From Candidatus Woesearchaeota archaeon (lineage in GTDB: Archaea > Nanobdellota > Nanobdellia > Woesearchaeales > WJKB01): DNA of 64,000 nt. Positions 2,027-49,555 of the stretch are shown piece after piece (the stretch's first letter is position 1; the number at the start of each line of letters is the position of its first letter). The stretch covers positions 71-64,070 of the forward strand of contig WJKB01000056.1 in the NCBI GenBank assembly GCA_014729345.1, in the 5' to 3' direction. The position numbers and the translations under genes are program-made. A model generated the notes under the pieces. That model searched no databases. It was not told the origin of the DNA and saw only the letters and a program-made list of their open reading frames with translations.

Positions 2027-2240
2027 GCATCATCCAGCCAGCATGCAGCAGACGCTCCCTGAAGGCGGTCGAGCAGCCTGGAACAGGATCTGCAGCAAAA
2101 AAGAAAAGTATATAAAAAGAGCAGACAAGCATACTGATATAAAGCATTGACAGGATAGTGCATGATGTAGTGCATAATGACACATCCAGGATAGCCCGGT
2201 CTGCAGTAATGCAGGCAGAAAAAACAAAAAAGAGGATAAG

Positions 2241-3980: not shown

Positions 3981-3983
3981 GAT

Positions 3984-4202: not shown

Positions 4203-4220
4203 TACATCTGAGGCTCTGAG

Positions 4221-6260: not shown

Positions 6261-6264
6261 CAAG

Positions 6265-23041: not shown

Positions 23042-24307
23042 TTATCCCCATTTATGCAAGGCCTTCAGAAGTTCAAGGTGCGTCCTTGCATATTCTGGAA
23101 GAGGTATGCCTTTCAGCTCTGCGTCGACCGCCTGCCTTATAGCCATGGCCCCTTTTCTTGTGCCGTCTGGATGGCCGTGGCAGCCTCCCCCGAACTGTGC
23201 GATTATGTTTGTCCCAAGTATGTCGATAAGTTCTGGCACAAGACCTGGATGAAGGCCGCCTGAAGCCACTGCAAAGACAGGCTTTACCCCTTGCCATCTT
23301 TGCTCCAGGACATGCTGGGACTTGTTTGGATGTATGAGGTCATCCTCTATCTCATCCTCTATAGCCTCTATCTCAGCAGGGCTGCCTTCCATCTTTCCTA
23401 CAGCAGTGCCTATATGGAGCTGGTCCACTCCTATCAGCCTGGCAATCTTCGCTATGGTGAGCATGCTGATACCATGTTTGGGATTCTTGGTGATGGCTCC
23501 GTGCATCGCCCTGTGGGCGTGTATTACCATGCCGAGATCCATCTCTCTCATGGTCTGCAGCGCAGCCCAGCCAACAGTGAGTATATCTATCATCATATAT
23601 TCGCCGCCAAGAGACTTCACATATTCTGCCCGTCTGATCATCTCGTTTGTCTCAGCAGTCACGTTTGGCATGTAGATCTTCTTCTCACCAGTCCATTTCT
23701 CAGCCTTATCCCTGAGCTCAAGGGTCTTATCCACCCGTTTCTCGAACTGGTTGAACCTCTGGGAAGTCAGGTTCTCATCATCCTTGACTATATCAAGGCC
23801 TCCCATCCATGCTTCATATGCGACCTGGGCATGCTGTTCAGGATCAAGGCCTACTTTTGGCTTCACTATCGTACCCAAGAGAGGGCTTTTTCTCTTCTTG
23901 ACAAGTTTTCGTATGCCGTTGACGCCGAACCCAGGGCCTTTGAAGGATCTGATCATGGCTTTTGGGAAGCTTATGTCTTCTAATCTCAGATTTTTCAGTA
24001 TCTTCATCCCGAATATGTTGCCTGCGATGCTGGAAAGTATATCAGGCATGTTGCCAAACTCAAAAAGTTCAGAGGGGTACGCGATCTTTATGATCCCTGA
24101 TTTCTTGTCCATGTAGAAAACATGAGGCTTGAGCCTTTTTGCTATCTTCTCGTTCATGGTGGATATGGCGGTCCACGTGCCTATGGATGACTCGCCTGCT
24201 ATCTGTTCGCATGCTTTCTCAAAGCTGACGCCGTCAGGCTCTGCATAGTACTGCGTGACTACATCATCCTTTCCTGGTCTGTATCTAAGATCTATGTACT
24301 CAAGCAA
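23042..24307 (-). CDS. rbcL: ribulose-1,5-bisphosphate carboxylase/oxygenase large subunit, archaeal type III
   Basis: Signature segments are GESSIGTWT, LLGTIVKPKVGL, GGLDIVKDDENLTSQRF and HAHRAMHGAIT, plus C-terminal GGGCHGHPDG. No small-subunit gene, consistent with form III. Confidence 0.95.
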   Translation of the reverse strand: MLEYIDLRYRPGKDDVVTQYYAEPDGVSFEKACEQIAGESSIGTWTAISTMNEKIAKRLKPHVFYMDKKSGIIKIAYPSELFEFGNMPDILSSIAGNIFGMKILKNLRLEDISFPKAMIRSFKGPGFGVNGIRKLVKKRKSPLLGTIVKPKVGLDPEQHAQVAYEAWMGGLDIVKDDENLTSQRFNQFEKRVDKTLELRDKAEKWTGEKKIYMPNVTAETNEMIRRAEYVKSLGGEYMMIDILTVGWAALQTMREMDLGMVIHAHRAMHGAITKNPKHGISMLTIAKIARLIGVDQLHIGTAVGKMEGSPAEIEAIEDEIEDDLIHPNKSQHVLEQRWQGVKPVFAVASGGLHPGLVPELIDILGTNIIAQFGGGCHGHPDGTRKGAMAIRQAVDAELKGIPLPEYARTHLELLKALHKWG

Positions 24308-28121: not shown

Positions 28122-28643
28122 TTACCTGCAGAAGAGTATCAGGTCTTTTTCTTCCTGGACAGTCTTCTGCACCTCAAAACCCTGCCTTATGCCTGCAGAT
28201 ATCCTGATTAGGTTTACAGACCTCTTAAGCACAGAAAAGGCATATCTGCACCCTTTCTTCCCCACCCTTCTGATCTCTTCCAGCGCCTTATCCATGTCCT
28301 TGAAATTGTGCATGGCTGTGACAGAGATCACCACATCAAATCGGTTGTCAGGAAAAGGAAGCGACTCAGCACTTCCCACCCTGAACATCTCTCCCAGGGG
28401 ATCATCCTTTTTTTCTGAAGATTCCTGGGCGTGCTTCTGTACAGCCATGCCTATCATCTCTTCAGAAGGGTCTATCCCGAAATACCTGCAGTTGAAGAAT
28501 CTTGACGCAAAACCTGTCCCGCATCCTATGTCAAGAAGCCTGTCTTCAGGCTCCACCTCGATATTATCTGAGATAATCCTGAGCTTCTTTTCCTGCTCTT
28601 CCCTGTGCAGCCTGTCATATCCTTTGGCTGTCTGGTCGTACAT
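28122..28643 (-). CDS. class I SAM-dependent methyltransferase
   Basis: Motif I is LLDIGCGTGFASRFF, with acidic and aromatic downstream motifs. Confidence 0.7.
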   Translation of the reverse strand: MYDQTAKGYDRLHREEQEKKLRIISDNIEVEPEDRLLDIGCGTGFASRFFNCRYFGIDPSEEMIGMAVQKHAQESSEKKDDPLGEMFRVGSAESLPFPDNRFDVVISVTAMHNFKDMDKALEEIRRVGKKGCRYAFSVLKRSVNLIRISAGIRQGFEVQKTVQEEKDLILFCR

Positions 28644-28705: not shown

Positions 28706-29203
28706 TTATCCATAAGTAAGCTCTGCCAGCCGCAGGTCATCGATACTGTCAGCAAGCTCTCCAGAGCAGTAATCTGTGCTTGCCAGCACTGTCACCATGT
28801 CTTCTGTTAACCTGTCTTCAGGATAGATGCATGTCATCTCAGCTCCCTGGAATAAGGTCCTCACCTCTTCAGGCTCATCTGGATCCAGCTCTTCTATCCT
28901 CTTGCTGATGGTGCAGTCATCCTGCACCGCAACAACTGCAGTAGTACCTTCGATATTCTCTTCAAGGTATGCAGGCTCGCAGTCAGCATATGCCTGCACT
29001 ATGCATGCCTCATCCCTGCATCTTTTGCCCTGGCCTGCTCCAGGTAGAAGATACAATGCCCCGAATGTCACCAGCAAGCCGACGATCACGACACCAGCCA
29101 CTATACCGAGCCATCTCATGCGTCTTTTTCTTGAAATGATCTTCCTGCTTCCAGGGACGATCGATCTGCCGGTGTTCAAGGATGTAGGTTTCATGTTTGC
29201 CAT
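28706..29203 (-). CDS. small membrane-anchored protein (165 aa), last gene of the giant-protein cluster
   Basis: Basic N-terminus then a single TM helix (WLGIVAGVVIVGLLVTFGALYLL), and a C-terminal domain with 4 Cys. Confidence 0.45.
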   Translation of the reverse strand: MANMKPTSLNTGRSIVPGSRKIISRKRRMRWLGIVAGVVIVGLLVTFGALYLLPGAGQGKRCRDEACIVQAYADCEPAYLEENIEGTTAVVAVQDDCTISKRIEELDPDEPEEVRTLFQGAEMTCIYPEDRLTEDMVTVLASTDYCSGELADSIDDLRLAELTYG

Positions 29204-29382
29204 CTGTCTTCACCCTTTTTTTCTATCATCTTTCAATCATCTACCTCTCAATCATCTACCTCTCAATTCATCTTTCAATCATCTTTCTTCTTTAAATAGT
29301 TTTATCTCAACTCTTCAGTCAGGAACCTGCTTCTGCAGCTCCTCCATCTTCTCCAGAGCCTGCAGTACTGCCTGAAGCGCTT

Positions 29383-32300
29383 TCAGCCGGCTGCAGGACA
29401 AAGCATCACAGCATCTGCGTTTGTCGCGCCGTACGGATGCGCCTGGGATGGGTCTATGACTACCTTCTCCTCTTCCCTGCCGTCGAAATAGAAGGTTCCC
29501 AGGGGCTTCCAGGTAAACCTTGCGCAGTTTGCCTGGCCTGCAGTTACCCTTGTCTTCTGGCCCGCATGATGTATCCAGTAGTTCACGCAGCAGCTGGGCC
29601 TGTTGTAGGTGCCGTCATAGCTTGCGCATACAAGGTACTCACCAGGCTCAAATTCAGCTATCCTTCCGAAAAAGTATGTGGCTCTCTGGTCAGATACTCT
29701 TCCGTATCCTTTTGCCTTGCTTGTGTAATAGTCATGGCCTTCATAGTCAAACCCTCCATCATCCATCCAAGGAGCGCTGCCGTTGATGACTGCAAGGCCT
29801 TCATCAAGCTCATCAATAACATAGCATCCTGTCATAGATGTGCACTGTGCCATCTCCTCTTCCCATCTGGCCTCATCCTCCTCAGACCATTCGCAGTCAG
29901 GAACCACCTCTTCTTTCTCCTTTTCAGCGATGTCCATGACGCAGCATTTCTGGTACCTGTCGCATGAGTATTCTGCTTCAGTAAAAGGCATCTCCTCTGT
30001 GTCCTCGCATTCGTCCAGGCATGTCCCTCCATGCGCTGTGCAATCCTGGAGAAGGACCTCTGACATGAACCTGCCTTCCAGTTCCCCTTTTTTCAGCTTG
30101 TCCTTGATCTCTTCTTCTCCTTGCTCATCCAGATATTGGCTGGCCTCTATCTCCTGTACATATGATTCCCAGTTTATGAGGTTCTGGATCGCAGTCACAG
30201 CGTTTTCAGGAGGAATGAGACCATACTCATAATCATCGATAAACTCCTGTGCAAGCGGAACAGGGACGGATGCGATCTCATTTTCGCTGAAAGGCGCTGC
30301 TGGCGGTGGTCGCGCAGCTTCACCAGGGCCTCCTGTCCTGAGCCTCCACAACAACAGGCCCCCTGTAATCCCTCCAAGCAGCAGGAGCAGCGCAAGCCAG
30401 TTCCTCCTTCTGCCCCTTTCCTGTTCAGCTGCAGGCTCCTGGGCAAGCACAGCTTCCTCTCTGGCCGCTTTCTCTGCTGCCTCATGGGGCATGAGCCTGC
30501 CGTCAGGTCTTGTATACTGTCTTCTTCCGCGTCTGTCAACTTGTCCTATGATGTTCTGGCTCCTCAGGTTGTTGACAGCTTCCCTTCCTCTCTGGACAGC
30601 CTCGTCAGGGGTCAGTGTGTTCCCCTCATTGTCCCTGTAGATGACATCTCCCTGCTGGTCGACCTCAGGAGTGATGCCAAGGGCTTCCCTGTCTGCGATA
30701 AGCTCGTCAGTCTCTTTGCGCGCATCTTCTCTGCTTATCCATATCCCTGGCTCGTCTTCCGCAAGCTTCTGTCTCTGCTGTATCCTTCGGTTCACAAGAT
30801 TATAGGTTATTCCCATCGCTTTCCTGGCGTCTCTTGTCTCCTGCACTTGCCTCTTGACATCATCGTCAGACATGAACCTTCCCTGGGAATCACGCCAGCG
30901 ACCTACACCAGGGTCATATGAATAGCCAAGGTCTTTCCTTATCCTCTGCCTTGTCAGCTCGTCCCTTGCCGCCTCATCAGCCTGCTGCTGGGAAGCGAAC
31001 CTTCCCAGAGGGTCACGCCAGCGGCCGACACCAGGGTCATAAGAGAATCCTGCCTGTTCCAGCGCATTCCTGTATCCTGCTCTTGAGATGTAATCAGCAG
31101 CCTCCTGGTCGATCGCCTCTTTTGAGGCAAACCTTCCCTGGGAATCACGCCAGCGACCTACATTAAGGTCATAACTGTACCCAAGCTGCTGGATTGAGTA
31201 TGAATGGACAAGATCCTGCATCTGCTGTCCTGTGACAAACCTGCCGTCAGGACCGCGGTAGCGCCCATCAGCATCCACAGTTATCCCTGCTTCTGCCCTC
31301 ATGTACTGCATATTCTCTTCAGGCGTCACCAGCTGGTTGATGTCTTCCTCAACCGCAAGGTCCTGCTGTATCAGCGGCTTTCTCAGCTCCCTGACAGGCT
31401 CTGTACTGGCTTCTGCTGCAGGCTCTGCTCCGATGATTGCCTCCTCTTCAGCCAGCCATGGTTCGGCAGCCAGTTCCTCTTCCTGCTCCTGGGCAGTCTC
31501 CAGGCTTTCAAGAGCCTCTTCTCCCTGCCTTATCTGGTCCATATATATGGTATGTACATCATCTATAGGTCCTGTCTGCAGTTTGTAGTACCTCTGCGCC
31601 GTGGTCCATGCTCTCTGCCTGAGCCTTTCTGTTTCCTGGCTGGATCTGACATATCTTTCTCTAAGCCCTTGCAGTTCCTGCTCCAGCTCGCGCAGCTCTC
31701 CTCTTGCTGAATTGACCAGCTCCATGTTTTCCCTTTCCTGTTGGGTTCCGAAAGGCATGGCTATGACATCCCCTTTCAGCTGCAGGGCCCTCTGCTCTGC
31801 ATCCCTTATCCACTCGTTTTCTATGCCTATGTCCTTGTCCACATCTGCAGTACCAGGGTGCTCCTGCACAGCTTTCACTGCCAGCGCAAACATCCATTTT
31901 TGGGACTGGTCAGAAAGATCCAGCTCCTGGACAGAAGCCTCGCCTCCCTCCACTGACACCTTTTTTACGCGATAGGTACCTTCTGACCTGTAGACCTCAT
32001 AATAGTCGCCGCTTACGATGCTGCCGTCATCACCCCATACAAGGGGATTATCATCAAAGAACTTTTGAAGGTGTATCTCTACTGCAAAGGCTCCGTCAGA
32101 AAGCCTGTGTATGGTCACCTGCTGCATAGTCTCAAGTGTCTCTCCCAGCTGTCCTTTCCTGAAACCTATGAACTGCTTCACAAGCTCCTCTGCGTTCCCT
32201 GGCTTCTCGGCAGTGTAGGGTTCTGTTGCAGCTGCAACAGCCTGTTCAAGCCTTGACTCTGCAGCTGCAAGAGCCTGTTCAGCCTGTGCAATGTCTGCCG

Positions 32301-33024
32301 ATATCGTGTCCAGCGCTTCCTGCGCCTGGTTTAGGGTTAGCCTGGCCTGTTCTGCGCTCAGCCGAGCATCATCTATCTTTTCTGCATCTGTCCTCTGCCT
32401 GGCTGCTCGCAGGTCCTGCAGCACTTCCTGCAGTGACATCCCCTGCTCTTCCAGGGTCTTTTCCATGATCCTTTCGACATACTGAAACTCTTGCTCTCTC
32501 AACTTCAGGTATGCATCGTAAAGCTCCTGATCATCAACAGCTGCCAGGTAATCATCTACTAATCCCTGGCTGTTCAGCTCCACGTACTTCTGGCTGAACA
32601 CACTTCTGATGTTATCCCTGATATTCTGCTCCATCACTGCAATGGCCTCAGCATCGCTCCGGCCTTTCATATTTAGCCACTCTTCATAAGCTCCTTCTGC
32701 GCTTCCAAGAGAATAGGCATAATCCAGCTGGAGAAGTTCTGGAGCATATCTGAACTTCTGTCCTGTATCCTGCCTAAAGGCATATCCGAGGCTGTCGACG
32801 CCTGCAGCATCATAGTCTCCTGAAAGGATATCAGCCCTGATATTCTGCTGCTGCTCTTGTGAAAGATCTTCGAAATGTCTGTTATGGCGCTGCAGAGAAA
32901 GCGCCTCTGCCTGCCAGCCCTCAAAGCCCGTAGGGCAGTTTGCCTGAGCAAAACAGAAAGGAAGCATGACAGTAAGGACTATCATGAAGGTTGCCATGGT
33001 CTTGAGGTTTTTTGTGTGTCTCAT
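29383..33024 (-). CDS. large secreted/membrane protein (1213 aa) with three tandem about 42-aa repeats and Cys-rich C-terminal domain
   Basis: N-terminal signal peptide ending FAQA. Three repeats centred on GYSYDPGVGRWRDSQGRF, with DNA repeat period about 130 bp at 30880-31200. An internal TM helix reads WLALLLLLGGITGGLLLW. The C-terminal about 330 aa contain at least 19 Cys. Confidence 0.7.
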   Translation of the reverse strand: MRHTKNLKTMATFMIVLTVMLPFCFAQANCPTGFEGWQAEALSLQRHNRHFEDLSQEQQQNIRADILSGDYDAAGVDSLGYAFRQDTGQKFRYAPELLQLDYAYSLGSAEGAYEEWLNMKGRSDAEAIAVMEQNIRDNIRSVFSQKYVELNSQGLVDDYLAAVDDQELYDAYLKLREQEFQYVERIMEKTLEEQGMSLQEVLQDLRAARQRTDAEKIDDARLSAEQARLTLNQAQEALDTISADIAQAEQALAAAESRLEQAVAAATEPYTAEKPGNAEELVKQFIGFRKGQLGETLETMQQVTIHRLSDGAFAVEIHLQKFFDDNPLVWGDDGSIVSGDYYEVYRSEGTYRVKKVSVEGGEASVQELDLSDQSQKWMFALAVKAVQEHPGTADVDKDIGIENEWIRDAEQRALQLKGDVIAMPFGTQQERENMELVNSARGELRELEQELQGLRERYVRSSQETERLRQRAWTTAQRYYKLQTGPIDDVHTIYMDQIRQGEEALESLETAQEQEEELAAEPWLAEEEAIIGAEPAAEASTEPVRELRKPLIQQDLAVEEDINQLVTPEENMQYMRAEAGITVDADGRYRGPDGRFVTGQQMQDLVHSYSIQQLGYSYDLNVGRWRDSQGRFASKEAIDQEAADYISRAGYRNALEQAGFSYDPGVGRWRDPLGRFASQQQADEAARDELTRQRIRKDLGYSYDPGVGRWRDSQGRFMSDDDVKRQVQETRDARKAMGITYNLVNRRIQQRQKLAEDEPGIWISREDARKETDELIADREALGITPEVDQQGDVIYRDNEGNTLTPDEAVQRGREAVNNLRSQNIIGQVDRRGRRQYTRPDGRLMPHEAAEKAAREEAVLAQEPAAEQERGRRRNWLALLLLLGGITGGLLLWRLRTGGPGEAARPPPAAPFSENEIASVPVPLAQEFIDDYEYGLIPPENAVTAIQNLINWESYVQEIEASQYLDEQGEEEIKDKLKKGELEGRFMSEVLLQDCTAHGGTCLDECEDTEEMPFTEAEYSCDRYQKCCVMDIAEKEKEEVVPDCEWSEEDEARWEEEMAQCTSMTGCYVIDELDEGLAVINGSAPWMDDGGFDYEGHDYYTSKAKGYGRVSDQRATYFFGRIAEFEPGEYLVCASYDGTYNRPSCCVNYWIHHAGQKTRVTAGQANCARFTWKPLGTFYFDGREEEKVVIDPSQAHPYGATNADAVMLCPAAG

Positions 33025-33115
33025 GATATCACCGTCCGTATTTGCATTATCTTCCCATCTTTCCTGGAATCTGCAATATCCTTCTCACTGCGCTTTTTTC
33101 TTTCTGCAGGCGTCA

Positions 33116-36100
33116 TCAGGTACATGCCTCTACCCTGCCTGTAGATTCTGGCATCAGAGCTTCATATTCTGGAATGACCTGCTGCTGTTGTTCAAACAGC
33201 TTGTAATTGTTGTATATTATCTGGGATGCGAAGTCTCTGAGTACAAATGATGCATGTACAAAGTCAACCTCTTCAAAGGAATCATAATAAGCCCTTGTCT
33301 GAGAGATGTCCATCATTGCAGGTTGAACTCCTGGTATCCTCACCATCCGCTCACTTGCCCTTAGTTCCTGTATCACTTTGTCAACATATTCCTGATTTCC
33401 GTCGAAAAGGGCAAGCAGCATTGACTGGAATTCAGGGCTTTCAAGGCCTTTTTCAGTAAGCAGATGCTGGTTGTTATTGTAAGCCATGTAGACCTTGTTC
33501 ATATGGTTGTACAGCCGAGCCACCACATTCTGCGTCATCTCTCTGTCTCTTTCTGCACCCTGGGACTGCACCCTGTATGGCTCTCCAGGATCTGTCTCCC
33601 TCATAAGGGGGTCAACATCCTTGCCGATCCTATATTCAGGCCTGTAAGCGAGTCCTGCCTGGATATGCGACCCGATAAGGGCGCCTGCGTTTGAAAACGC
33701 TGTAATTGTCTGGTAAGCTGGCCCGAACTGTTCTCTTATACTAGAGATATCCTCCAGGCTGGCTGCATAATCAACAACATCAGATCTTTCGCTGGAATCT
33801 ACAAGGAATATCCTGAATGTTACTCCATTTCCAGCTTGATCCAGTCTTGTGAATGCGAAACTTCTTGCAAGTGCTGGATGACCTTTTGCGACAAGGTCTT
33901 CCTCATTCTGCTGTGCTTCTATATCATACCTGTAGTCTGTCATCCCTATACTTGTTGTTGATATCTCCTGATATTCATGCTCAAATCCTATGCCTGTCTT
34001 AAAGGTGTACTCAGGAGCAGATACCCGTGTTTGGCCGTCATAGTAATAACCCTGGAAATTCGGGGTCCCTATGCCTTTCAAACCTATCCTGTAACCGTAC
34101 TGCACCTTATGGGTGGATGGGTCATACTCGATAGCAGACTCGGTAAGATGCTCAAAGAAGATCTCATCCACCTCTCCGGTCTGCTTGTTGACTACAATGG
34201 TAGTGGGCTGTTTGACATGGAACTCTCTTCCTCCCTGCGCAAAGACAGGTATATCATTACCTGTGTATTCAAGTCCGAACAGGACCTCTATCTCATCTTT
34301 GCTAAGATCATTGAAGTTCCTGTCCCAGACATCTCCGGCTATAGGCACAGGCATGCCCACCTCATCAGGATTCCGGTCTTCTCCCTCAGACTTGATCTCT
34401 GCTATTCCATCCTGGTATTCTTCTTCTGTTATCTGTCCTTGTTGTCTCTGCCGGACCAGAGATCTGACTTGCTCAAGCTTTTCCCTGCTTCCCAGCTTTT
34501 CAGAAGCCGTATACAGTCCTGCGACAACAGCAAACTCCTTGTATTGATGGTCTGCGCGAGCTACCCTACTGATCGGAAGTGCTTCAGCCATCTGTTCCCT
34601 AAATTCATCATTTCTCTCAGCTTCTGTCTGTCCAGGGATATTGCCCTGCCTCATATCTTCGACTATTGCCATAGCAGCATCGTATCTTTCCTCAGTCCCT
34701 GCTATCTTCCACAGATGTACCCTGAACTGATCTTCGGTGAGCCTTCCGGCTTCTGCCTGCCTGAACCTTGTGACTGCCGCCAGACCAGGATTTCTTTTGT
34801 TATAGATATCTCTTTTTGAGATTTCTGATTGCTCCATGATTCTTTCTCTTTGCTGTTCATCCAATGCCTGGGCATCCAGGATGTTGTTCAGGTTTTCCCT
34901 GATCCTGGTTTCCATAGACACCTCTGGAACAACAGGTTCTGCCGCAGGCTCTTCCTCCACAGCAGGCTCCTCTGCCTCAACCATTTCCTCTACTTCTGAA
35001 AGCTGTGCAATCAATCCCCTTTCAGTTTCAGCCTGGATCTCCAGTGCATATGCCGCTCTCTGGGCCTGCCTGACAGTCTCTGCTCCATCTGCAGGAGGGG
35101 CCAGCCTGCTGTCTATGTCTGTTACAGCAGTCACAGGTACATCCACCATGTCCTGCAGACCGTTCTTGACTGCCCTTACAAAGGAATCCTGCCTCACATC
35201 GCTTTGATAGCTGTTGATGATGTATACATCGTCCCCTTGCACAAACACCTGAAGATCTGCAACACCTGTAATCTCTGCTGCTCTTCCGGCGATCGCTGCA
35301 GCAGCATCAGCCTCGATCCCAGGCGCGTTCAGGACAGTAACTGAAGGGGAGGATATGGATTCCAGCTGCTGAGACCTGCTCTGGATATTCTGCATGATAT
35401 CCATCGCTGCTTTTGCTGCACTTGAGCCAAGACTAAGCTCGGTCTCCACTGCAAGCTGTTCTCCCTGCTCCTGCCTGATCTCTTCAGCCAAATCCTGTAT
35501 AGCGCTCTCATACTCCTGTAGTGCCTGCTCGTATGCAGCCAGCCTCCTTTCATAAGCTATGCTCCCTTCCTGAGGCATGGTGGGCCTTGTGATACCCCTT
35601 TGCTGTGCCTGCTGCTCTGCAAGCCTCTGGATCTCAGCGGCAACTCCATTTTCAACATCCTGCTGCATTAAAAGGTATATCTCATTAAATGTATCCTGGA
35701 ATTCCCTGCCTGCAAACCTTGTTTCTTCAAGCGCAGAGCGGGTTGTTGCAGCATATTGCGGAAGAGCCTCATCTATGATCCTGTTCTTCTCATGGGTCAG
35801 GCCTCTCTCAACAAACCTTTGGGCTGGATTCAGCCCTACCATCCCCATTATTTCAGCATTATCCACCAGGTCTGCAGCTTCAGGGATCCCCTGCAGACGC
35901 TCATAGAGCAGTGCTGCCCTATGGTTCTTTCCCAGCCCAACCAGGCTGTTGAAGTAGCTCTCTGCTTCCTGAGCTGACATGCCTGCGATCACCTCTGCCT
36001 CCGTGCTAAGAGCAATGATCTCTCCAAAAGGGCTTTCCACAGCCTGGACTGCTGATGCTTTCAGGCCGATGATATCTGTCCTTACCTGCTGCTCCATACC

Positions 36101-39100
36101 CTCAGGCACCTGCTCCTGCACAGCCAGGTATATCTCTTCAGCTGTATTCTCTCTGACCATATCGACTGTAAGCGCGTCCCTTATCCCAGGCATGTCCTGG
36201 AACCTGAGCCCGATCTCCCCTCTGACCTGTTTTTCCAGCGCAAGCTCTTCGACTATGATGCCTTCTCCCAGAAGCTCCCGCACATCTATCCCGATATTTT
36301 CCTGCCTGTACAGGAGGGCTGCAAACTGGTCTGCTACGTCTGAGTCCGCCCTCAGGAGCTGCAGGTACTGTCTTGCTGCTGCCGTTTTCATATCCCTGTC
36401 CATCCCAGGGTCCATAATCGTGTCAAGCAGGGTGCTGAACCTTTCCTCAAGTATAATATCAATCCTTTCAAGAGAAAGTTCCTTGAGCGCAGAATCAGGC
36501 TGCTGGTCTGTCAGTCTCTTCCGCTGCACGAGGTTGTTGGTGATCACAGGCCCGTATTGCAGTTCTATTATCTCTCTTTGCGCATCCAGGGCCTGACCAA
36601 ATCCGGACTCATGGGCGCTGATATATGCTCTTGCCGCCTCATCATTGACCTCTGAAGCCCTGCGCACATCATCATAGTACTGTTCACCAAGCAGTCTCTT
36701 CAAGAATTCTTCACTCCTTTCATTGTTCCTGTTCTGTGCCAGCCTCAGTATTGCGTTCTCCACACTGGACTCGTCTGTATAGTAATACCTCTCCCCTCCA
36801 CTGATAGCTGTGATAGTGTCTACTGCGCTCATCACCTGTATAAGATCCTCTTTTCCTTCCAGTAGCGCAGGCAGCTCTCCAGGAGTCCTTGGATATCCCC
36901 TGTACTCCTGCCCTGGCTCAACACCCATGTGTACATGGTGCGATGCCGCAAGCGCAGCCACAGTGGCCTGGTCCCTCACTTCAGCAGATATGTCTGTCCT
37001 GGAAGCTATCTGTGCATAAATGGCATCTATCCTAGCCTGCACATCCTCATGAACTCCTGTATCAAGCCTGCCCTGTGCATCATACATCTGGACAGTGTTG
37101 CCCTGCTCATCAACATAAAGCGCATCGATCTCTGCTATCAGATCAGCAGGCATATCAGGATTATCCCTGGCCATGAGGTAAAGCAGCGCCCTTTCTGTAT
37201 TTGTGGGATGGACTGTCATGTAATCCTGGAAGAAGTTTTCAGTCATTCCGACTCCTGTGATTCCGCTCTGCTCTATCTGCTCTTCTGTAAGCCCCCTTGC
37301 CCTTAGTTCATCCACAGCTGCAGCCTTTGCATCGCTGCTGAAAATTGTCTCAAGGTTCTGCGCAGGCCATTCGAGCTTGCCAAGGTCATGCACAGCCATG
37401 GCTCTCCTCAGCAGATCCATGTCATCATCTGATAATCCGAGCTGTCCTGCAACCGCAGCTGCAGCCTCAAGATTCCTCATGCTCATAAGAGTATGGACCA
37501 TGGTCGGGGAGGGGTTATGGGTGGCAAGGGCCTCAAGCGCAGCGATCTGGTTCTGGGTTAGGCTGTCTTCAGGCAGCATGTCTCTAAGTTCTCCTGTAAG
37601 CTGCACTCCCCATGCGATCCTCTGGGACTCATATTCTTCATCATATGTTATTCCGTCTACAGTGCTTGGAGCTCCGAAAGCCTCCCTCTCAAGCCTTTCG
37701 ATAGGGATTTCCACCTCACCGATTATCTGCACTTGAAGCGGCCTTGATTCCTGTGCAAGCGCACGTATCTCCTGCATCTGCTGGTCAGCGGCAAGATTGA
37801 CCTGGAAGACCCCCATGCCCGCAGACTCAAACAGCGCCTCTGCATTAATTATCCATGCATCTGTCACTGTCCATACGCCCTCCTGATCCTGCTCAAGATA
37901 TCTTACCTCCCCTGTGTTCACGTTTGAATATCCTGCAAACAGGCTCTCAAGACTTTCCTGCTCTGAAAGCAGCTCCTCCCTGTAAGCTTCTTCTTCAACA
38001 GTCAGGCCCTCAGCTGCTTCCTGCTTATCAAGCATTCCGATCTCATCACCCGCCTCGCTTAGACGGTTTTCTATATTTGTCTCAAGAGCCCTCATCCTTG
38101 CACTCGGCCCTCTCAGTCCGAGCGCTGCCATGGCAAACTCATTTGCAAGCTCTTCTCTTGCATCTTCCATGGTCTCGTCAGCTGTCATCTGAGCAGCATC
38201 CACAGCCATGTCTGTGAGGTCCTGCGTCCTAAGGAGCAGCTGCTCGTGCCTTTCATGCATGAATATGAATGACCTTACCATGATGTCTGGCTGCCCTTGC
38301 AGCTCAGGGAAGGCATCCCTGACAGCGTCGACTGTCTGCGGAGAAGGATCCACAAAGATATCTGACTCTGTCGAAAGTCCTGCAAGTATGTAGGTGCCTG
38401 TAGGTGTCTGGATCTCGAGAGGTGAGGCAGGCGCAGTTATCTCAAAGTCTATCAGGCCCATCTCAGCAAGATTGGAAAGAGGGGTCGCAAGCATGTCTGC
38501 TGTAGGTCCGCCCTGCGAGTAATAGATGTTCTTGAGCCTGTCTGAGTACGCCATCACCCTGTTGACTGAAGGAACTGCTGCAATCTGTCTTGCCATAAGG
38601 AATTTGGCAGCTTCTCCGTACTGTTCTGATTCGATTGCGCTCACAAACGCCCCTATGACCTCGTTCGGATTGCTCCTGGCCAACTCCAGCGCTGTCGATT
38701 CAATGTTCCTTAGAGCGTTGATGTCACCCCCATATGCCTCATAGCCTGCAGCAAGCGCAGCTGCAGCATCATAAGCGTCCTGGCTGCTTTGGGATGCTGT
38801 CTCGAGCAGCTGGGCTGCAGAAGCTCTTGAGACGTCGTCATTCCTGCTCTGCAGCGACCTCACCATCTGTTCGGGAGTGGCAGTATCCCTTGCAGCCTGC
38901 AGCAGCTGCTGGTCCATGAGGTTCTGCACTGCCTGCAGATATATGCTTTCCATGGCAATTGTCTCATCTGTCCTTCCCTGCTGTTCTATCTCCATAAGCC
39001 TCATGAATTCAGCCCTTATCTCTCCTGAACTGATAGCTTCAGCATAAGCTGCAGCAGTTACATCAGGATCCACTCCGTACTCCTGTCCTGCGGTGTAGAC

Positions 39101-42100
39101 CACTTTGTCGATATTCATGGCCTGCAGTCTTTCAGACGCTATCTGTTCTTCTGTCTTCTGCTTCATCTGCTGTCCGTACAGCTGGGCTTTTGCGTCTTTA
39201 GCATAATTTTCCTGGTGCCTCTGCTCAATTGCTTCGAAATCAGTCACACCTTCTCTTGCAGCCAGGTGCCTTGCAGTAGCTTCCACCTCAGTCCTGACTG
39301 TCTGCGCTATGGATTCCAGCCTTATCTGTTCACTGACCGATGTCTTTACTTTCTCCTCGAACATGTCCTGCCTTACCCGCTCATCCACTATCCGGGCAGT
39401 CTCTGCCTGATCATATCCGTTTGCCTGTGCAGCCTGCCTTATCTGCTCAACCTTGTCATAAAGCGTCTGTTCCACCCTCTGCTTGTATCTCTCTTCAGCC
39501 TGCTCCATGTAAGAGCCCTCTGCATCTGTAAGCCCCAGATTATGCAGGGCTTCCACAGCCTCGATCTGCTGTGCAGCGACAGTATTGCCTTCCTCAGCAG
39601 TCTGGGCTATGTCTGTAGCTATCTGCTCAGAGGACCTGAAGGACAGCTCGTCAGCCAGGGCCTGATCCTCTGCTGTGAGCTCTTCGCCTGCTGAAACCTT
39701 TTCGTCGATATCTGCCTGTCTTGCATCGATAGATTCTCTGACAGCGTCTTCTATGGTCTTTACCTGCTGCATATTGCCTTCAGAGTCTACCATGGTCTCG
39801 ACAGCTACACCTTCAGCAGCTGCGACCACAGTGTTTCCTTCTTGTCTGTACACTACTTTTTGGGCTGTGGCCTCGACCATCTCAACTCCTGCTATCTCGG
39901 ATATGAAACTTGCAAAGTCCTGCACATCTCTTCTGTTGTGCAGGGTCAATCTCTTGTAGTTGGTGTTGCCTGCCTCGTCCACAAGTGTCTGCTCGCGCTG
40001 GAAGTTGGGTGCATCCACCCCTGCTGCTGTCAAAACCTGGCCGTCGATCTCCATGCTTTGGCCTTCACTGATGCTTCTTTGGTTGGTGTTGATGAACACG
40101 ATATTTGAGGGGCCTCCTGTGTTCACTGTCTCAGCCCTGACTATGCTGTTGTCTGAACTTACCGAAGTCCTGTATCCCCTGCTTTGCAGTGACGCCTGTA
40201 TATCATCTGTCCTTATACCTTTCACCATGATCTCCTGAGAGATGACGTTGTCAGCGCTGTCAAATGTTATCACTCCGCCTCTTGACACTTCTGCTGCAGG
40301 ATTGGCGGTCCTTATCGCGTTTTCAGCTGCCTGTGTCACAGTGGTGTCCATCTTGGCTTTTGTCACATCAGAAGCATCGACTCTTGTGCTTATCCTAGAT
40401 ACGCTTGAAGCAGAGGTGTCGCCTCTTGCAAGGCCTGCTGCTATCTGTGCGCCGGTCTTTCTTATGGTGACATCCTGCTGGCTGACGTCTACTCCCTTCT
40501 CATGCAATACCACTGCTCCTGTATTGTCCCCTATCTCACTCTGGAAAGTGATGATACCGTCAGTGTCTGTGTTGAGTGTCCGAGCATTGAAGCCGGCTGT
40601 CTGCGACAGTCCTGTCTGCAGTGTCTGCATTGCCTCAGCATCCTGCATAACACCGTCAGCCACCTCAAGCTCCATGATCTTCTGTCCTCCTTCAAGTATG
40701 GCGGTGTGGGCTATGGTCTCTACAGCTATCTCGCCGACGTCAAATTTTGCATCAACATTGAGCCCGATGTTTGATAGTCCTGCTTCGCTTATGTCTGGAG
40801 TCAGGAGTACTGTATCTCCAAGGCTGCTCTGGTAAGAGAAAGCAGCGATCTCTCCTGCAGCATCCCTTATCTCCTGCCTGTTTGTCAGCTCAAGTGCTCT
40901 TTCGATGTTTTCAAGGTTGGAGGGATCCTGTCTGGCTGCTTCAAACTGGTTTTGGGAGAGCTGGCCTGTAGTTGTCACTCCTGAGGCTGTGACAAAAGTC
41001 CTGACATTGCTTCTTCCCAGGGAATTAAGGTAAGAGTTATACATCTCGCCGTGTCCTGCAATCTGCTCAAATGTGTCTGGCAGGGCTGAGAACTGTCTGG
41101 CAAGCGCCTCTCCTCCTAGCTTCTCTCCGAACTTGCCCAGGGCAGAGCCCAGCTTGTCTGCATAGAAATACTCTTCAAGGGCGATCTCGCCGACCCAATG
41201 CTCAACATTATTCCCGACAAATTTCACGACAGAATTCATTACCTTGCCTGACGGTCTGGTGCCGCCCAAAAGGCTTTTGGTGAAAGAGGAAGCATAGTTA
41301 CCCACCTTGTTGGATACAGAATACATGCCTTTTGCAGTTTTCTGTATCCCTGAGCCTACCTTTCCCACCCCTCTCACCACTGTCCCCAGGGCTTTATAGG
41401 CTCTGCCTGCATCGTCTGCATATGAGGTGGCTTTGGCTGCCGCAGAATACGCTGTTTTGATCTTTCCCATGACAGCTCCGCTCAAATGTGATATGGCCTT
41501 TGACTGGAGTTTCATCATTGCAAAAGACTGGCCGGTTGTCATCTTGTCCCCAAACCCATCCTCATACCTGTCCAGATCTTCCATCTCAAGCTTGATAGGT
41601 ACAGCGCCGTCCTCTGTCTGGAAAGTGTAGGAAGTCTCAAGCTCTATCTCATCCGAGTCCAAATCGATCCCTGAATACTCAGCTATGTCTCTGGCATGCG
41701 TCCTGGTATTCTGGACAGCGTTCTCATAAAGTTTGATCGTCGATTCAGCCCCTAGGCCAAGCCTTTCAAGTCCGTTCTCATGATAAACTCCTTCAGCATC
41801 TGTACCTCCGTATGCTATGTTCAGAGCTTTTTCTATAGCATTCTCTCCATCAGTGGTTCTGCCTTTGAGGATCTCTTCTGTAGTCACTATATTCTCCATA
41901 TCGCCGTTATATGTTGCGATCGAGAGTTCTGCCGCTTGCCTGATGCCTTCAGCTCCCTGCAAAGCATCATCATATTCTGCAAGCGAGTCCTCGATATGGT
42001 TTCCTGTGCCAAGATTGATCCCAAGAATGTCGCCCCATTCATCCCAAACTTCCCAGGCAGGTATAGCTTTTGTCACTCCCAGGCTGGTCACATCCTCCCA

Positions 42101-45100
42101 TCCATAGTCCACAAAACTTTTTATCTTGTCAAGCCCTTCATCATGGAATATCTCCTTGAGGACTGCTCCCATCACTATTTTTTTTGACTGCACATAGTTT
42201 ACGTATGCTTGGCTTCCCTCAACTGTACTGGGAGTGCTGTATACCCGCAGTGTCTCTCTTGCCTGTTCAGAAAATTCCTGGTCAGTATCCTGCGCTTCAT
42301 ACTCTGTCTCCTGGTGCTCGACATCCTTGTTCATCCATTCCTGGGCGATCTGCCGGCCTTCACTGGTCCAGTACCCTCCTTTAAGAAAATAGTCCAGGAG
42401 CATCCTGTTCTTCTCAGAAGATGTCTTGTCAGCCTTTAACTGGAATGCGTTTCTTTCATCCTTGATAGCAAGCGTCTCATCTATCATGGCCTCGACTCTT
42501 CCGCTATCCTCGAGATAATTATCATATGTATCACCCCAAAGCTCAGTGTCTGACCTTTGGATGCCAAATTTCTCAGTTAGCGCGCTGATGGTCTTGAGAT
42601 GACCGTTCATGTCCACTTTCAGGTCAATCATGTCCTTCTCAACTGCTGCAAGGTCGTATTCTTCTTCCACTATAGGATCTCCTGTAATAGTTGACCTTGC
42701 TGCGTTCCAGGCTCCGGTAACTGCATCCTGCACATTCTCTCCAAATCCTGTGGCTGCGCCTGACCATGCATCAACATATGATGAGAAAGCATACCAGGGA
42801 GCAGAAGGGTCCCTTGCCTGGATCTTCCTGTCAAGATAGTTCTGCGCCTGGACATCGCCTATCCTTGCCTTAAGGTCAGCAGCCAGGCCAGAGATACCCT
42901 GGATGGTCTGCGTGCTCAGGTCTCCCTGCTGAGCATCTATGATCTCTCTTGAGGCAAGCTCTTTTGAGTAGGCATCTGCCATTATCTTAAGGTCATTGAC
43001 CTGCTCCTTCAGCGCCTCATTGGCCCTGCCTGAGATCTCAACCACTTCAGCAGCGTCCTCTAGAAGGCCCATCACCCGCTTCCCTCGAGCAAGGAGTTCT
43101 TGATCATCTATGCTGCTGAAAGTCTGGATATACTTTTCCTCTTTCACCTGGTCCTCAAAGCCCTGCAGGGTATTTTTAAGAGACTGGATATAAGCTACAT
43201 CAAGACCCTCTTCCCTTGCCTGTCTTATCTGGATCTCAAGGTCTGACATGACCTGCTCCCTGTCAGCTTCTCCCAAAGCAGCAGCCCTTGCATCAATACC
43301 AGCCATCAGATTCGTAAGCGTACTGATATCCTGCCTTGCAGCTTGCCTGGCTGCATTGTCCCTGACTTCAAGACTGGCCTTGTCACCCACGTAACTTACA
43401 TACTCCACTGTCTCAAAGTATTCATTTTCCTCAAGCTTGTCACTATAGGCTCTTATCTTGAATTCGAGCATTGTTTTTGCCCTTTGCTGGGCCTCAAGAG
43501 GCAGCTGCCTGATAGATTCTTCCAGCTGCTCCATCTCCTCATGCGTAAGGTCCTCCTCCTTTCTTGCAAGCTGGGATATCCTCTGCAGGGTTTGGGGCAC
43601 CTGTTCGATCTGGTCTTCAAGCTCGCTTTTTTCTTTGTCAACAAGAGTCTTTATGCTCTCATCCTCTGTTTTGACCCTGTCCAGCACATTGATTGCATCC
43701 TCCAAGCGTCCCAGGTTTGTATAAGCGGTCGTCAGGGCGTTCTGGACAGCAAAATTGTCCTCCTTGCCTTGAGCATATTCCTCAAGCGATTCAGTGTTTC
43801 CGGTCCTTAGCAGCAGGTTTGCATAATATGACTGCACACCATCGATATCACTGGAATCCTCATCTTTCGCAAGCTGCTCAAGCTTACCGTAGTCTTCAGC
43901 CTCAAGATAGGCTCTTGCCAGATTGGTAGCCAGCTTCTCGTACTCCTCGCTTGAAGAGTCAGCTTCCCGCAGTTCTGTCTCAAACCTCTCAATCATCTCA
44001 GAATAGGTTCCTTCACCCCTTGCTTGCTGGAAATCTGCTTCTGTCTCAACATTTGCGATCAGAGCCTGCGCATAATCTCTTTGCTGAACAGTCGTCGCCA
44101 GCTCTTTAGCCTTTGAAAAAAACCCTTCAGCTTTCTCGTAATCTGTATCCTCCCTGCTGAGCTCTGCAAGGCCCACCATGATATTCTGCTGTGCGTCCAG
44201 GAAACCGACCATCTCTTCAGAAACCTCTCCATATACTCCCTGCCTGGCTGCCTCAAGTGTGCTGGAAAGGATTCTTGAGGCCTCCTCATAATCTTCTGCC
44301 TGCTGCTGGATGTTCGCAAGCTCTGAATTGGCCTGTGCCCTTATATCACCTGGAGCTGCCTCTTCATCTGCTAATGCGGCAAGCTGCTCCTTTCTACTTT
44401 CAACATCCTCTTCCTGCTTGATGGCGCTGAGCTTAGCGCTGTAAAACTCAAGATTGATCCTGTCAGCCTCTTCTGACCTGCCCTCCTCGTTAAGTTGATC
44501 TATGGCAGCCTGGTAGGCATCAAACATTTCCTGTTTCTGCTCATCATCAAGGGAATCCTGGGCCTGCAATATCCTTGCCAGGTTCACTTTAGAGTCAGCG
44601 CTGCCGACAGCATCCACATAATCTTTTGCTGTCTGCAGGGCTTCTGTTTCTGCTCCCTGCTGCATATGCGCGCTTGTAAGTATCTTCCAGGCATCCTCCC
44701 TCTTTGCATCCAGTCCTAACACATACTCAGCAGCCCTTTCTGCTCCTGCTGCATCCTCCATCTGCAGCCTTGCTGAGGCTTTCTGGAGCGACAGCTGTGT
44801 GGTCTTTTCAAAATAATCATTCAGGGAATCAAACCCTGCCTGCTCCAGGTCATAGCCAGCTCCTCTGACCTTTTCTGCAAGCGCCCTTTCAGCAGCTTCT
44901 GAATACACTGTGGCCAGCTCAGCATTTCCGAGCTGGGAATATATGCTGCTCACAGCTGCATAGACATCTGGATTGGTGGTGTCTATGTCAAGATAGCTCT
45001 GGTATTTCTCCAGGGCTTCAAGGATATCACCCTGACTCCGCAACTCCTCCGCATCCTTAAGCAGTTGTGCATTTTCAAAGATCTCCACCAGCTGCTCCTT

Positions 45101-48019: not shown

Positions 48020-49059
48020 TCAAGCACCAGCCATTCAAAGTTTGCCTCATCAGTGTACCCTGAACCGTCTGTAACCTCAACTGTCACGTTGAAGCTGCCG
48101 GTGATCCTGGGCACGAAGTCCACGCTTCCGTCCTTTTCCACATCGAACATGATGTGGTCTGACCTGAAGGTGAGCTCGTCTCCGTCAGGGTCTGTGGCCT
48201 GTATCTGATACACAAATCTCTCATTGTCCACCCCTACCAGCCTTTCAGGCATGGTGATCACAGGGTACTTGTTCACAGGGACCGTGGTTCCGAACATAAA
48301 AAGGTAAGGCTCTCCTGGCCTCATGGCAGAGCGATTGTCCTGAAAAGCGTATATTATAGTGTCCTCGCTTACAGGCATCACTATGATGTCAAGGTCATAC
48401 TCGAGCAGTGGGGTGAACTGCACCCAGCCCGGATCCTCAACCACAAGATCATTCACCTCGTTTGCTGTGTTGAGTATGTAGCTGAGCCTGTGTGGGATGA
48501 TCACCCTGAACCTTTCAAGCCTTCCCTCGCTTTCCTCAATCGCTGCATCTACAGGGTACTCCATCTCAAACACCAGCTCATTGACAGCTATGGTCACAGT
48601 GGTGTTGGGTTCGCCCGCTTCCACAGACCATCCCTGCTGCTCAAAAGAGCTGAAGTTTGTGCATTCCTCAAGCATCTGGTCCACATACAGGGCAAGCTGG
48701 CTCTCTATCTCTGGCTGCGTGGGCCTGAGATCCCCCAGCTCGTCATCATACCACAGGCTTACTGCTGAGAATTCTGTGACAACTGAAGTGTTTGGAGGAT
48801 ATGCATATCCTCCCTGAACCCCGTTAAGGTAAGCTCCGTCGATCGCTGTCTCCCTCAGGCAGCCGGTGATATAGTTATGCAGGGGCCTGAGCTCTGTGGG
48901 CACCTCTATCAGCTCCCTTTCCACTTCTGGCCTGTAGATTCCGAAAAGATACCATATTGTTGCCGCGAGTATCAGGATGACCAGGCCTATTATGACAAAC
49001 AGCGTCACCTGTCCCCTGCTTCCTTTCTTACGCATTTGCCAGCCTCCAGAAGCTTTCAA
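48016..49059 (-). CDS. prepilin-like (class III signal peptide-like) membrane protein, 347 aa
   Basis: N-terminus is KKGSRGQVTLFVIIGLVILILAATIW: a basic region, RG, then a long hydrophobic helix as in type IV pilins. Translationally coupled to the giant gene. Confidence 0.45.
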   Translation of the reverse strand: MKASGGWQMRKKGSRGQVTLFVIIGLVILILAATIWYLFGIYRPEVERELIEVPTELRPLHNYITGCLRETAIDGAYLNGVQGGYAYPPNTSVVTEFSAVSLWYDDELGDLRPTQPEIESQLALYVDQMLEECTNFSSFEQQGWSVEAGEPNTTVTIAVNELVFEMEYPVDAAIEESEGRLERFRVIIPHRLSYILNTANEVNDLVVEDPGWVQFTPLLEYDLDIIVMPVSEDTIIYAFQDNRSAMRPGEPYLFMFGTTVPVNKYPVITMPERLVGVDNERFVYQIQATDPDGDELTFRSDHIMFDVEKDGSVDFVPRITGSFNVTVEVTDGSGYTDEANFEWLVLE

Positions 49060-49555
49060 ATCCGTGGACTATTATGATCTCTTCCTCAGGCCTCGTAAAC
49101 CCTGATCTTGGAACAACCTCAAATTTGATGCCTGTCATGGATGATACCAGGCCCCTGACCTTCATCTCATCCTCGCACACAAGCGTGAGGCTATTCTGCC
49201 TCTTCTTTGCGAAAAAGGCAGAATAGACCGCAGCCTGTGATGCCAGTTTCCTGGCTATGTCTTCAAGTTTCTGCAGAACAGCCTTGTTCTGCAAGCCAAA
49301 ACCCTCTTTTTCCTCAGCAGAGATGTAAGATAAGAGCAGTATGGTCTTGTCGCTTTGTAGGTTGAGCGAGCATACTATGCTGGGGCCTATTATCTTCTTG
49401 TTCAGTATGTTTTCAGAGAGAAGCTTCCTGACCTCTTTGTTTGTGTAAGCATAGCTCTTTTTCAGCTCTTTGGATATCTGGTTGATGGTCAGCTCCCTGC
49501 TTATATCCCTGAAAAAAAGCCTTATTATCGAAAGCTCTGAGTTCATTCTGGCCAC
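49028..49555 (-). CDS. winged-helix (HTH) transcription regulator-like protein
   Basis: N-terminal 70 aa (SRELTINQISKELKKSYAYTNKEVRKLLSENIL) has HTH/wH character. First gene of the cluster, next to the repeat-rich intergenic region. Confidence 0.45.
   Translation of the reverse strand: MARMNSELSIIRLFFRDISRELTINQISKELKKSYAYTNKEVRKLLSENILNKKIIGPSIVCSLNLQSDKTILLLSYISAEEKEGFGLQNKAVLQKLEDIARKLASQAAVYSAFFAKKRQNSLTLVCEDEMKVRGLVSSMTGIKFEVVPRSGFTRPEEEIIIVHGFESFWRLANA

Follow-up and report, generated by a model that had tools for sequence, protein, structure and literature searches.

A candidate adhesin or anchor with a lectin-type domain, encoded beside a giant secreted protein in a Woesearchaeota archaeon

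Introduction

Archaea of the DPANN group live attached to other cells by means that are largely unknown. Suspicion falls mainly on giant surface proteins, whose partners have hardly been described. A stretch of 64,000 nucleotides from a Candidatus Woesearchaeota archaeon (GenBank assembly GCA_014729345.1, contig WJKB01000056.1, positions 71 to 64,070 of the forward strand; hereafter the window) encodes a secreted giant protein of 4967 amino acids (aa) and, immediately downstream on the same minus strand, a protein of 1213 aa at positions 29383-33024. What does this second protein do beside the giant, and do the two belong together? The 1213-aa protein is a lineage-specific envelope protein of this DPANN archaeon and probably a component of cell attachment rather than a toxin. 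That it acts as an adhesin or anchor in the same surface system as the giant protein and a pilin-like, Big_9-containing protein encoded upstream is, in our judgment, an evenly balanced proposition.

In the favored scenario, the C-terminal lectin-type domain would recognize a glycan, either on a host cell or on the envelope of the organism itself, while the helical region and the repeats that precede it would serve as a long stalk or as a further surface for binding. The hydrophobic helix between these parts would supply the membrane anchor that the giant protein lacks, so that the 1213-aa protein could hold or position the giant at the membrane. With a lectin-type domain and a potential anchor on one polypeptide, it offers a concrete and testable candidate for a partner of the giant.

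The gene and its C-terminal lectin-type domain

The open reading frame reported by the first-pass annotation, a model's reading of the letters, is real: it runs uninterrupted over 1213 codons from an ATG start, a Shine-Dalgarno-like GGTGA precedes it, and its product is identical to an NCBI protein. The same GGTGA also stands ahead of the downstream gene for a 165-aa protein. A word-indexed search of 5.8e9 proteins returned GF351_02705, at 100% identity, as the sole match. The gene, its Shine-Dalgarno-like site and the two parts of its C-terminal module are located as follows.

29383..33024, minus strand: whole open reading frame, 1213 aa, identical to NCBI hypothetical protein GF351_02705 (Candidatus Woesearchaeota archaeon)
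33029..33033, minus strand: Shine-Dalgarno-like GGTGA, 4 nucleotides (nt) before the ATG of the 1213-aa gene
29848..30042, minus strand: Cys-rich mini-domain, residues 995-1059, C-x6-C-x3-C-x14-C-x5-CC (995-1028) plus C1044; pLDDT <50
29386..29847, minus strand: Golvesin/Xly-type, CBM6/35-like beta-sandwich, residues 1060-1213, with 7 Cys (Pfam, phmmer, AlphaFold2, Foldseek)

The protein contains 16 Cys, namely C24, C30 and 14 within residues 995-1209. A Cys-rich C-terminal domain of about 330 aa with some 19 Cys and a CxDECxD motif had been described; the motif is present as CLDECED, and the figures become 318 aa (residues 896-1213) with 14 Cys, all of them in 995-1209. Nor is the region an uncharacterized Cys-rich domain, as its last ~150 residues are of the Golvesin_C / CBM6-35-like type. 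Pfam places Golvesin_C (PF25275) on residues 1083-1208 (E=3.2e-7, profile positions 14-130 of 132), and the precomputed database annotation of GF351_02705 also gives PF25275.2. When residues 560-1213 were compared by phmmer with 1.84 billion representative proteins, 14 matches were obtained, 12 of which fall on approximately residues 1060-1213 (E 3e-11 to 7e-4). These 12 are bacterial secreted proteins with 2-5 tandem copies of the domain, among them a VanY-type peptidase, a PilY1-like protein and Rhs-type toxins; nothing past such domain-level relatives was found for the C-terminal half in this search.

Structure prediction agrees with the profile match. An alignment of the domain (A4) shows invariant G, Y, H, Q, G and D columns, and AlphaFold2 run with this alignment gave pLDDT 80-96 over most of residues 1118-1213 (pTM 0.69). 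The top Foldseek match in the PDB was 6f2p, a xanthan lyase of Paenibacillus (E=5.4e-7), and CBM6 (2cdo/2cdp) and CBM35 (2w46/3zm8) structures came next; a PDB sequence search with the C-terminal region returned nothing meaningful. By profile and predicted fold, residues 1060-1213 are thus assigned to the known lectin-type family Golvesin_C / CBM6-35-like. The family has been described as CBM6-CBM35-CBM36_like_2, lectin activity has been shown for two Bacteroides members, Cbeg4 and Cbeg5, and few members have been characterized for carbohydrate binding (PMC9166713). Glycan binding by the archaeal domain is accordingly a prediction by family analogy.

Residues 1060-1213 share with the family, whose examples include the C-terminal module of xanthan lyase 6f2p, Cbeg4/Cbeg5 and Dictyostelium golvesin, the conserved columns YxVxH...V.V.Q...W..LG.F.F....ADAV as well as the beta-sandwich fold. 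The archaeal copy differs from bacterial members in having 7 Cys that they lack and in being preceded by a Cys-rich mini-domain; it is also single instead of tandem and follows an internal hydrophobic helix.

A paralog ties the lectin module to the neighborhood of the giant gene

The nearest relative of the whole C-terminal module is a paralog in the same metagenome-assembled genome (MAG), the 715-aa protein GF351_00440 (MBD3309668.1; P0006). It carries the motif C..GG..C...C..CC twice, followed by a lectin-type domain with 32% identity to that of the 1213-aa protein (E=3e-15), and thus repeats the same order of Cys-rich motif and lectin-type domain. Its N-terminal part is homologous to residues 122-189 of a 347-aa protein encoded just upstream of the giant gene (E=8e-9). 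The paralog and the 347-aa protein also begin alike, with QVTLF(V/I)I(I/L)GLVILI after basic residues, an N-terminus that resembles class III (type IV pilin-like) signals. In contrast to the 1213-aa protein, the paralog combines this pilin-like signal with an N-terminal domain like that of the 347-aa protein and has no coiled-coil, repeats or internal transmembrane (TM) helix. The paralog fuses equivalents of the two genes that flank the giant gene, which is the best available evidence both for a joint function and for export of the lectin module, and the fusion ties the three genes together.

The genes concerned lie in one co-directional run of six, from 49555 down to 28122, in which the 1213-aa gene is the fourth; the core unit comprises five genes, from that of the 175-aa protein to that of the 165-aa protein. 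The remaining members are given below.

49028..49555, minus strand: 175-aa possible regulator
48016..49059, minus strand: 347-aa protein with class-III (pilin-like) N-terminus and Big_9 Ig-like domain; 4-nt overlap with the giant gene
33116..48019, minus strand: 4967-aa secreted giant protein; signal peptide, no other hydrophobic segment, TPR-type matches only, 2 Cys (C20, C4966)
28706..29203, minus strand: 165-aa membrane protein with basic N-tail, one TM helix and 6-Cys domain; 179 nt downstream of the 1213-aa gene
28122..28643, minus strand: 173-aa methyltransferase, after the 165-aa gene

The 1213-aa gene starts 91 nt downstream of the giant gene on the same strand. The proposal that it encodes a partner of the giant is in this respect supported by adjacency and by the co-directional run; of the receptor-like or toxin-like character proposed along with it, only a receptor- or adhesin-like one is sustained by the lectin-type domain. 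The mature giant protein has a single Cys, the penultimate residue C4966 (...VEACT).

Several points weigh against an adhesin or anchor that works with the giant. The PF25275 score, 30.9 bits, is 0.7 below the gathering cut-off of 31.6. No full-length relative of the 1213-aa protein other than itself was found in the index of 5.8e9 proteins, nor any relative of its N-terminal half among GTDB species genomes, and AlphaFold2, given residues 29-875 as a single sequence, produced a model of low confidence (mean pLDDT 52). Co-transcription is deduced from strand and spacing alone (gaps of 91 and 179 nt). The glycan ligand, the binding-site residues and the interaction with the giant protein are things that we infer. 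Finally, the topology expected from the hydrophobic segments, N-terminus outside and C-terminus inside (N-out/C-in), would put the lectin module with its 14 Cys in the cytoplasm.

The central helix and the membrane side of each half

A cleavable signal peptide and a single central TM segment had been predicted for the protein, and features that fit both are present, with signal-peptide cleavage and TM segments assigned by hydropathy and the -3/-1 rule only. The parts on which topology depends, together with the region that follows the signal peptide, are these.

32941..33024, minus strand: Sec-type signal-peptide-like N-terminus, residues 1-28, MRHTKNLK / ATFMIVLTVMLPFCF / AQA, with N next after the cleavage site (hydropathy and AxA rule)
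31345..32940, minus strand: acidic, mainly helical region, residues 29-560 (single-sequence AlphaFold2, low confidence, pLDDT mostly <50)
30340..30402, minus strand: hydrophobic helix, residues 875-895, NWLALLLLLGGITGGLLLWRL, Kyte-Doolittle mean 1.9 over 19 residues
30073..30339, minus strand: Pro/Ala-rich linker and acidic juxtamembrane segment, residues 896-984, read from the sequence; no family match

By hydropathy, the N-terminal hydrophobic segment spans residues 7-30. Its basic n-region (MRHTKNLK), h-region and predicted cleavage site between AQA and N resemble the other Sec signal peptides of the window, those of the giant protein (predicted cleavage between AAA and Q) and of a 724-aa protein (between VSA and A). 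A lipobox at C24 or C30 was considered and rejected, as the preceding residues do not fit [LVI][ASTVI][GAS]C. The region from residue 29 to 560 contains one Cys only, C30, and in the AlphaFold2 model a small beta subdomain at approximately 300-367; it has no relatives in the protein index, the GTDB species genomes or Pfam, and the NCBIfam scan gave coiled-coil noise only. Searched against BFVD, the fold of the low-confidence N-terminal model yielded TM-scores <0.1, a meaningless result. Across the mature N-terminal 845 residues C30 remains the single Cys (codon 32935-32937), two residues past the predicted cleavage.

A cleaved signal peptide followed by a Leu-rich stop-transfer helix at residues 875-895 implies N-out/C-in, with residues 896-1213 in the cytoplasm. 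The charges next to the helix, RGRRR on its N side and RLR on its C side, are not decisive (K+R 4 versus 3 within 15 residues). Residues 896-1213 themselves bear the marks of an extracellular region: their Cys count is even (14), there are two CC doublets and no CxxC pairs, and some of the Cys are common to the exported paralog and missing from bacterial homologs. Taken together, these marks suggest extracellular disulfides. Compared with a Sec-exported type I membrane protein, the signal and the single stop-transfer helix are therefore present by hydropathy and rule, and the C-in orientation clashes with the nature of the C-terminal module. The conflict may reflect a type I protein whose cytoplasmic domain is unusual, two units in one frame, or an unconventional topology.

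Two functional units in one frame, a secreted coiled-coil and repeat protein (residues ~1-845) and an anchored, Cys-rich lectin with its N-terminus inside and C-terminus outside (~846-1213), would resolve the conflict, and we regard this as unlikely but worth keeping in view. Counted from M846, 29 residues form a basic tail that reaches the TM helix with RGRRRNW, and the neighboring 165-aa protein has a very similar N-in anchor, with SRKRRMRW at the end of a 30-residue tail ahead of its TM segment. All Cys except C24 and C30 are located from residue 995 onward, and in the paralog the lectin module stands behind an N-terminal signal. The join itself could be a recent real fusion, or be bridged by internal initiation or processing, or result from an error in the MAG consensus or assembly that removed a stop. 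However, nothing interrupts the reading frame, neither M846 nor any nearby in-frame start has a Shine-Dalgarno-like site ahead of it, no sign of an intergenic remnant is seen, and in-frame stop loss by assembly error is uncommon.

The type I arrangement taken at face value describes a receptor-like protein whose coiled-coil and repeats lie outside and touch the giant, while a cytoplasmic C-terminal domain uses its Cys for metal binding or signaling. It is the sole topology that reconciles a single polypeptide with signal-peptide cleavage and one stop-transfer helix, the charge balance around the helix (4 versus 3) means that the positive-inside rule does not forbid it, and the putative ectodomain is poor in Cys and acidic, as is the giant protein. 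Against this, all beta-sandwich relatives occur in secreted or surface proteins, CBM6/35 folds bind polysaccharides, and the pattern of the 14 Cys points to disulfides, which leaves such a receptor doubtful.

Two further candidates bearing on the anchor region were discarded. A match to the protein P0011 reflects the composition of a TM segment and Pro/Gly linker only, and a PGF-CTERM/archaeosortase signal does not apply, as the helix is not C-terminal and PGF is absent.

The repeat array

Between the acidic helical region and the membrane helix lies an array of short repeats, which are resolved as follows.

31216..31266, minus strand: weak unit 0, residues 587-603, GRYRGPDGRFVTGQQMQ; i-Evalue 1e-3 within the protein with a hidden Markov model (HMM) of the core; strands then helix in AlphaFold2
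31126..31185, minus strand: core 1, residues 614-633, LGYSYDLNVGRWRDSQGRFA; HMM 69.8 bits
30994..31053, minus strand: core 2, residues 658-677, AGFSYDPGVGRWRDPLGRFA; HMM 67.0 bits
30871..30930, minus strand: core 3, residues 699-718, LGYSYDPGVGRWRDSQGRFM; HMM 70.9 bits
30445..30870, minus strand: degenerate units (weak evidence), residues 719-860, DEPGIWISREDA at ~757, YRDNEGNTLTPDEA at ~796 and TRPDGRLMPHEAA at ~838, each followed by a helix

At the DNA level, the three repeats with a period of about 130 bp noticed at first pass correspond to direct 56-nt repeats at 30875-30930, 30998-31053 and 31130-31185, spaced by 123 and 132 nt and 77-86% identical. The best pair agrees at 48 of 56 bases, versus 29-35 in 20 codon-shuffled controls, a similarity far beyond chance. 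At the protein level the description of three nearly identical repeats of about 42 aa survives in part: there are three clear copies, 41-44 aa apart, and conservation is confined to a 20-aa core, G(Y/F)SYDxxVGRWRDxxGRF, of which pairs share 15-17 of 20 residues. The 21-24-aa linkers between the cores retain ~60% nt identity in global alignment and cannot be aligned as protein, so the units are not nearly identical over their whole length. Core pairs differ at 4-7 synonymous codons. From these sequence comparisons the repeats appear to stem from a duplication long ago, with the core under selection, rather than from recent copying.

In the single-sequence AlphaFold2 model the array is the best-predicted part (pLDDT 70-81), and each unit is built of three short strands (SYD / RWR / RF) and a helix of 15-38 residues; on this model the repeat is a small beta-beta-beta-alpha unit. 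The degenerate segments align by BLASTP to the repeats of P0007, a 220-aa protein considered below, reach marginal core HMM scores, and show strand-strand-helix at 784-822 and 838-860 in AlphaFold2. This weakly suggests about three further degenerate units out to approximately residue 860. The core HMM found no copies outside the 1213-aa protein in a six-frame translation of the window.

Relatives of the repeat

Could the repeat be assigned to a known family? None with an assigned function was found. Against Pfam at E<=10 the repeat matched noise only (LPD37 at 0.044), with RHS_repeat and CW_binding_1 absent. Rhs/YD repeats (PF05593) and choline-binding repeats (PF01473) are also short beta-hairpin motifs rich in Gly, aromatic residues and Arg, and the YxYD..GR of the former resembles the first half of the core. 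Nevertheless, PF05593 gave no match at E<=1 with the whole protein or at E<=10 with the repeat region, and contiguous YD hairpins are lacking here; PF01473 gave none at E<=10, and the period of 41-44 aa with helical linkers contrasts with its contiguous hairpins of ~20 aa. Unlike either kind of repeat, the units are parted in the AlphaFold2 model by helices of 15-38 residues and form no continuous beta solenoid or shell.

Two real relatives were identified, the N-terminal 40 positions of the phage family phrog_24776 and the protein P0007. The repeat region matches the former with E=2.8e-8 in two stretches, at profile positions 3-42 of 218 only, which by sequence is a shared motif and not membership in the whole family. 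P0007 has two clear core copies 36 aa apart (phmmer E=3.3e-6 among 1.84e9 proteins; BLASTP 5e-15). In both, an acidic helix comes after the SYDxxxxRWRDxxGRFxS core that they have in common with the array. In contrast to the 1213-aa protein they are small, have neither signal peptide nor lectin domain, and occur in virus-like contexts.

P0007 is encoded at 1551-2213 of the 3.7-kb contig PWEF01000005.1 (GCA_003553425.1), directly upstream of a protein-primed DNA polymerase of the PolB type. This truncated polymerase gene (2232-3653; PF03175, phrog_11768) has as its closest relatives in the phage database the archaeal viruses His2, Hardyhisp2 and His1, and the contig resembles part of an archaeal virus or of a linear plasmid. 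Upstream of P0007 lie genes for a small Zn-ribbon and a ribbon-helix-helix protein. In phi29 and PRD1, the terminal protein is encoded directly upstream of the protein-primed polymerase. That P0007 occupies the position of a terminal protein may be treated, by this analogy, as a lead rather than a result. The proteins encoded upstream of the polymerases of His1 (ORF11) and His2 (ORF15) were examined as further relatives and set aside: they look motif-like by eye, and their scores, <1 bit with the HMM and at best E=0.012 by BLASTP in a two-sequence comparison, are non-significant.

The search was extended with a strict back-translated pattern, SYD-x4-RWRD-x2-GRF, scanned in viral, genome and metagenome contigs. 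It occurred in 0 viral, 0 genome and 3 metagenome contigs, with about one occurrence expected by chance on a rough estimate. In the three metagenome matches the unconstrained positions agree too (V or L before G/R, A or S after GRF), yet the proteins are unrelated. One (L002, 3730-4122, plus strand) is a small protein, encoded near a ParB-like gene, in which a hydrophobic segment lies on either side of the motif; the other two (L003, 1084-1131, minus strand; L004, 3070-3117, plus strand) have it at the extreme C-terminus of eukaryote-like low-complexity proteins. Queried with the repeat region, or with an alignment of 7 repeat units, the word-indexed search returned nothing, not even the 1213-aa protein. 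Among viral contigs, a related-locus search with repeat alignments or P0007 gave pattern matches only, with 0 confirmed, and the repeat region had no tblastn match in phage genomes, where P0007 gave only a spurious HNH. The protein-primed polymerase returned nothing from IMG/VR.

The repeats might then be a virus-derived nucleic-acid-binding module, and the protein part of DNA capture or uptake or of an integrated mobile element rather than an adhesin. The only repeat relatives are phrog_24776 and P0007, the latter upstream of a polymerase related to those of His1 and His2, at a position that belongs to the terminal protein in phi29 and PRD1, and Arg, Trp and Phe abound in the core. But both relatives are without known function, the motif turns up in eukaryote-like proteins and a small membrane protein as well, the likeness to the His1 and His2 proteins is non-significant, the repeats come after a signal peptide, and the surroundings of the open reading frame in the window contain no gene for an integrase, terminase, capsid or polymerase. 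Such a role is very improbable.

A toxin-like effector, of the polymorphic or Rhs/YD-repeat type and delivered with the giant protein, is scarcely credible: the core YSYDPxxGRW resembles the YD-repeat signature YxYDxxGR(L/F), and two distant Golvesin_C matches, P0009 and P0013, are Rhs-type toxins, but RHS_repeat gives no match even at E<=10, the units are parted by helices rather than forming contiguous hairpins (AlphaFold2), and no immunity-like gene pattern is seen. No toxin, RHS, peptidase or nuclease domain was detected anywhere in the protein by Pfam, NCBIfam, PADLOC-independent searches, PDB sequences or fold search, and the toxin-like half of the earlier proposal is abandoned.

Comparison with other giant-protein loci

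Giant surface proteins of other DPANN archaea have been proposed as host-attachment devices (PMC10266531). In the SPEARE or SVXNc_0300-type loci of nanohaloarchaea, a giant protein combines Ig-like adhesion domains with a VirB4/TraG ATPase domain, and a gene for a VirB4-like ATPase lies downstream (PMC10266531). The present locus is similar in that a very large, acidic protein with a signal peptide is encoded in a DPANN genome together with co-directional accessory genes. It differs in that the giant has only TPR matches (E<=0.01), with no detectable Ig/laminin or VirB4/TraG ATPase domain and no membrane anchor, and in that the downstream genes encode the lectin-bearing 1213-aa protein and the 165-aa membrane protein, not a VirB4-like ATPase. 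Although the 1213-aa protein is an orphan over its full length, the domain that tells most about it comes from a known family, and accessory surface proteins have already been described at giant-protein loci of DPANN archaea (PMC10266531).

A bolder extension of the adhesin or anchor reading joins three elements, and their joint occurrence is quite improbable. The ~40-aa unit, with its core SYDxxVGRWRDxxGRFxS, would be an undescribed binding module common to a DPANN envelope protein and to proteins that archaeal viruses with protein-primed polymerases encode in the terminal-protein position, a virus-derived module co-opted into the giant protein's attachment or DNA-capture apparatus. C30 and C4966 could, purely by conjecture, form one intermolecular disulfide, a covalent membrane tether for the giant. 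Both halves of the 1213-aa protein would lie outside, brought there by an unconventional route despite the central hydrophobic helix. Should the repeat core prove to be a binding module, it would represent a new small domain, with a rare motif otherwise met in virus-like contexts.

Other features of the window

The remaining content of the window is consistent with a DPANN archaeon: pilin-like N-termini, a T2SSE ATPase with a PilB3-like C-terminus, two T2SSF, a form III-type RuBisCO large subunit and ELP3. The RuBisCO large subunit, at 23042-24307 on the minus strand (E=6e-95), is accompanied by no sign of a Calvin cycle within the window. We take it to fit the form III enzyme of nucleotide salvage that is typical of DPANN and Candidate Phyla Radiation (CPR) organisms. 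Neither the Rfam nor the tRNA scan of the window gave a match, and a promoter and terminator scan, whose coverage does not extend to archaeal promoters, gave background level only.

G+C content peaks at 0.54 at 30001-32000, in the repeat and linker part of the 1213-aa gene, versus 0.42-0.50 in flanking genes, which probably reflects a composition rich in Ala, Arg, Gly and Glu; the giant gene, at 0.50-0.52, is slightly above its surroundings. A 178-aa protein at 296-832 (plus strand) has an archaeal pilin-like start, KKGVSPLIATVLLIAFAVALG, and adjoins the T2SSE/T2SSF genes at 2241-7176. At 58808-59725 (minus strand), a 305-aa protein in which 31 residues (10%) are Cys is another exported Cys-rich protein of this genome; its N-terminus is lipobox-like (VFMSGC), D/E-x-C motifs recur in it, and Pfam gives no match. 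The intergenic space that separates the 1213-aa gene from the 165-aa gene contains a tandem repeat with a period of 11-15 at 29220-29287, for example TCAATCATCTACCTC in 2.7 copies.

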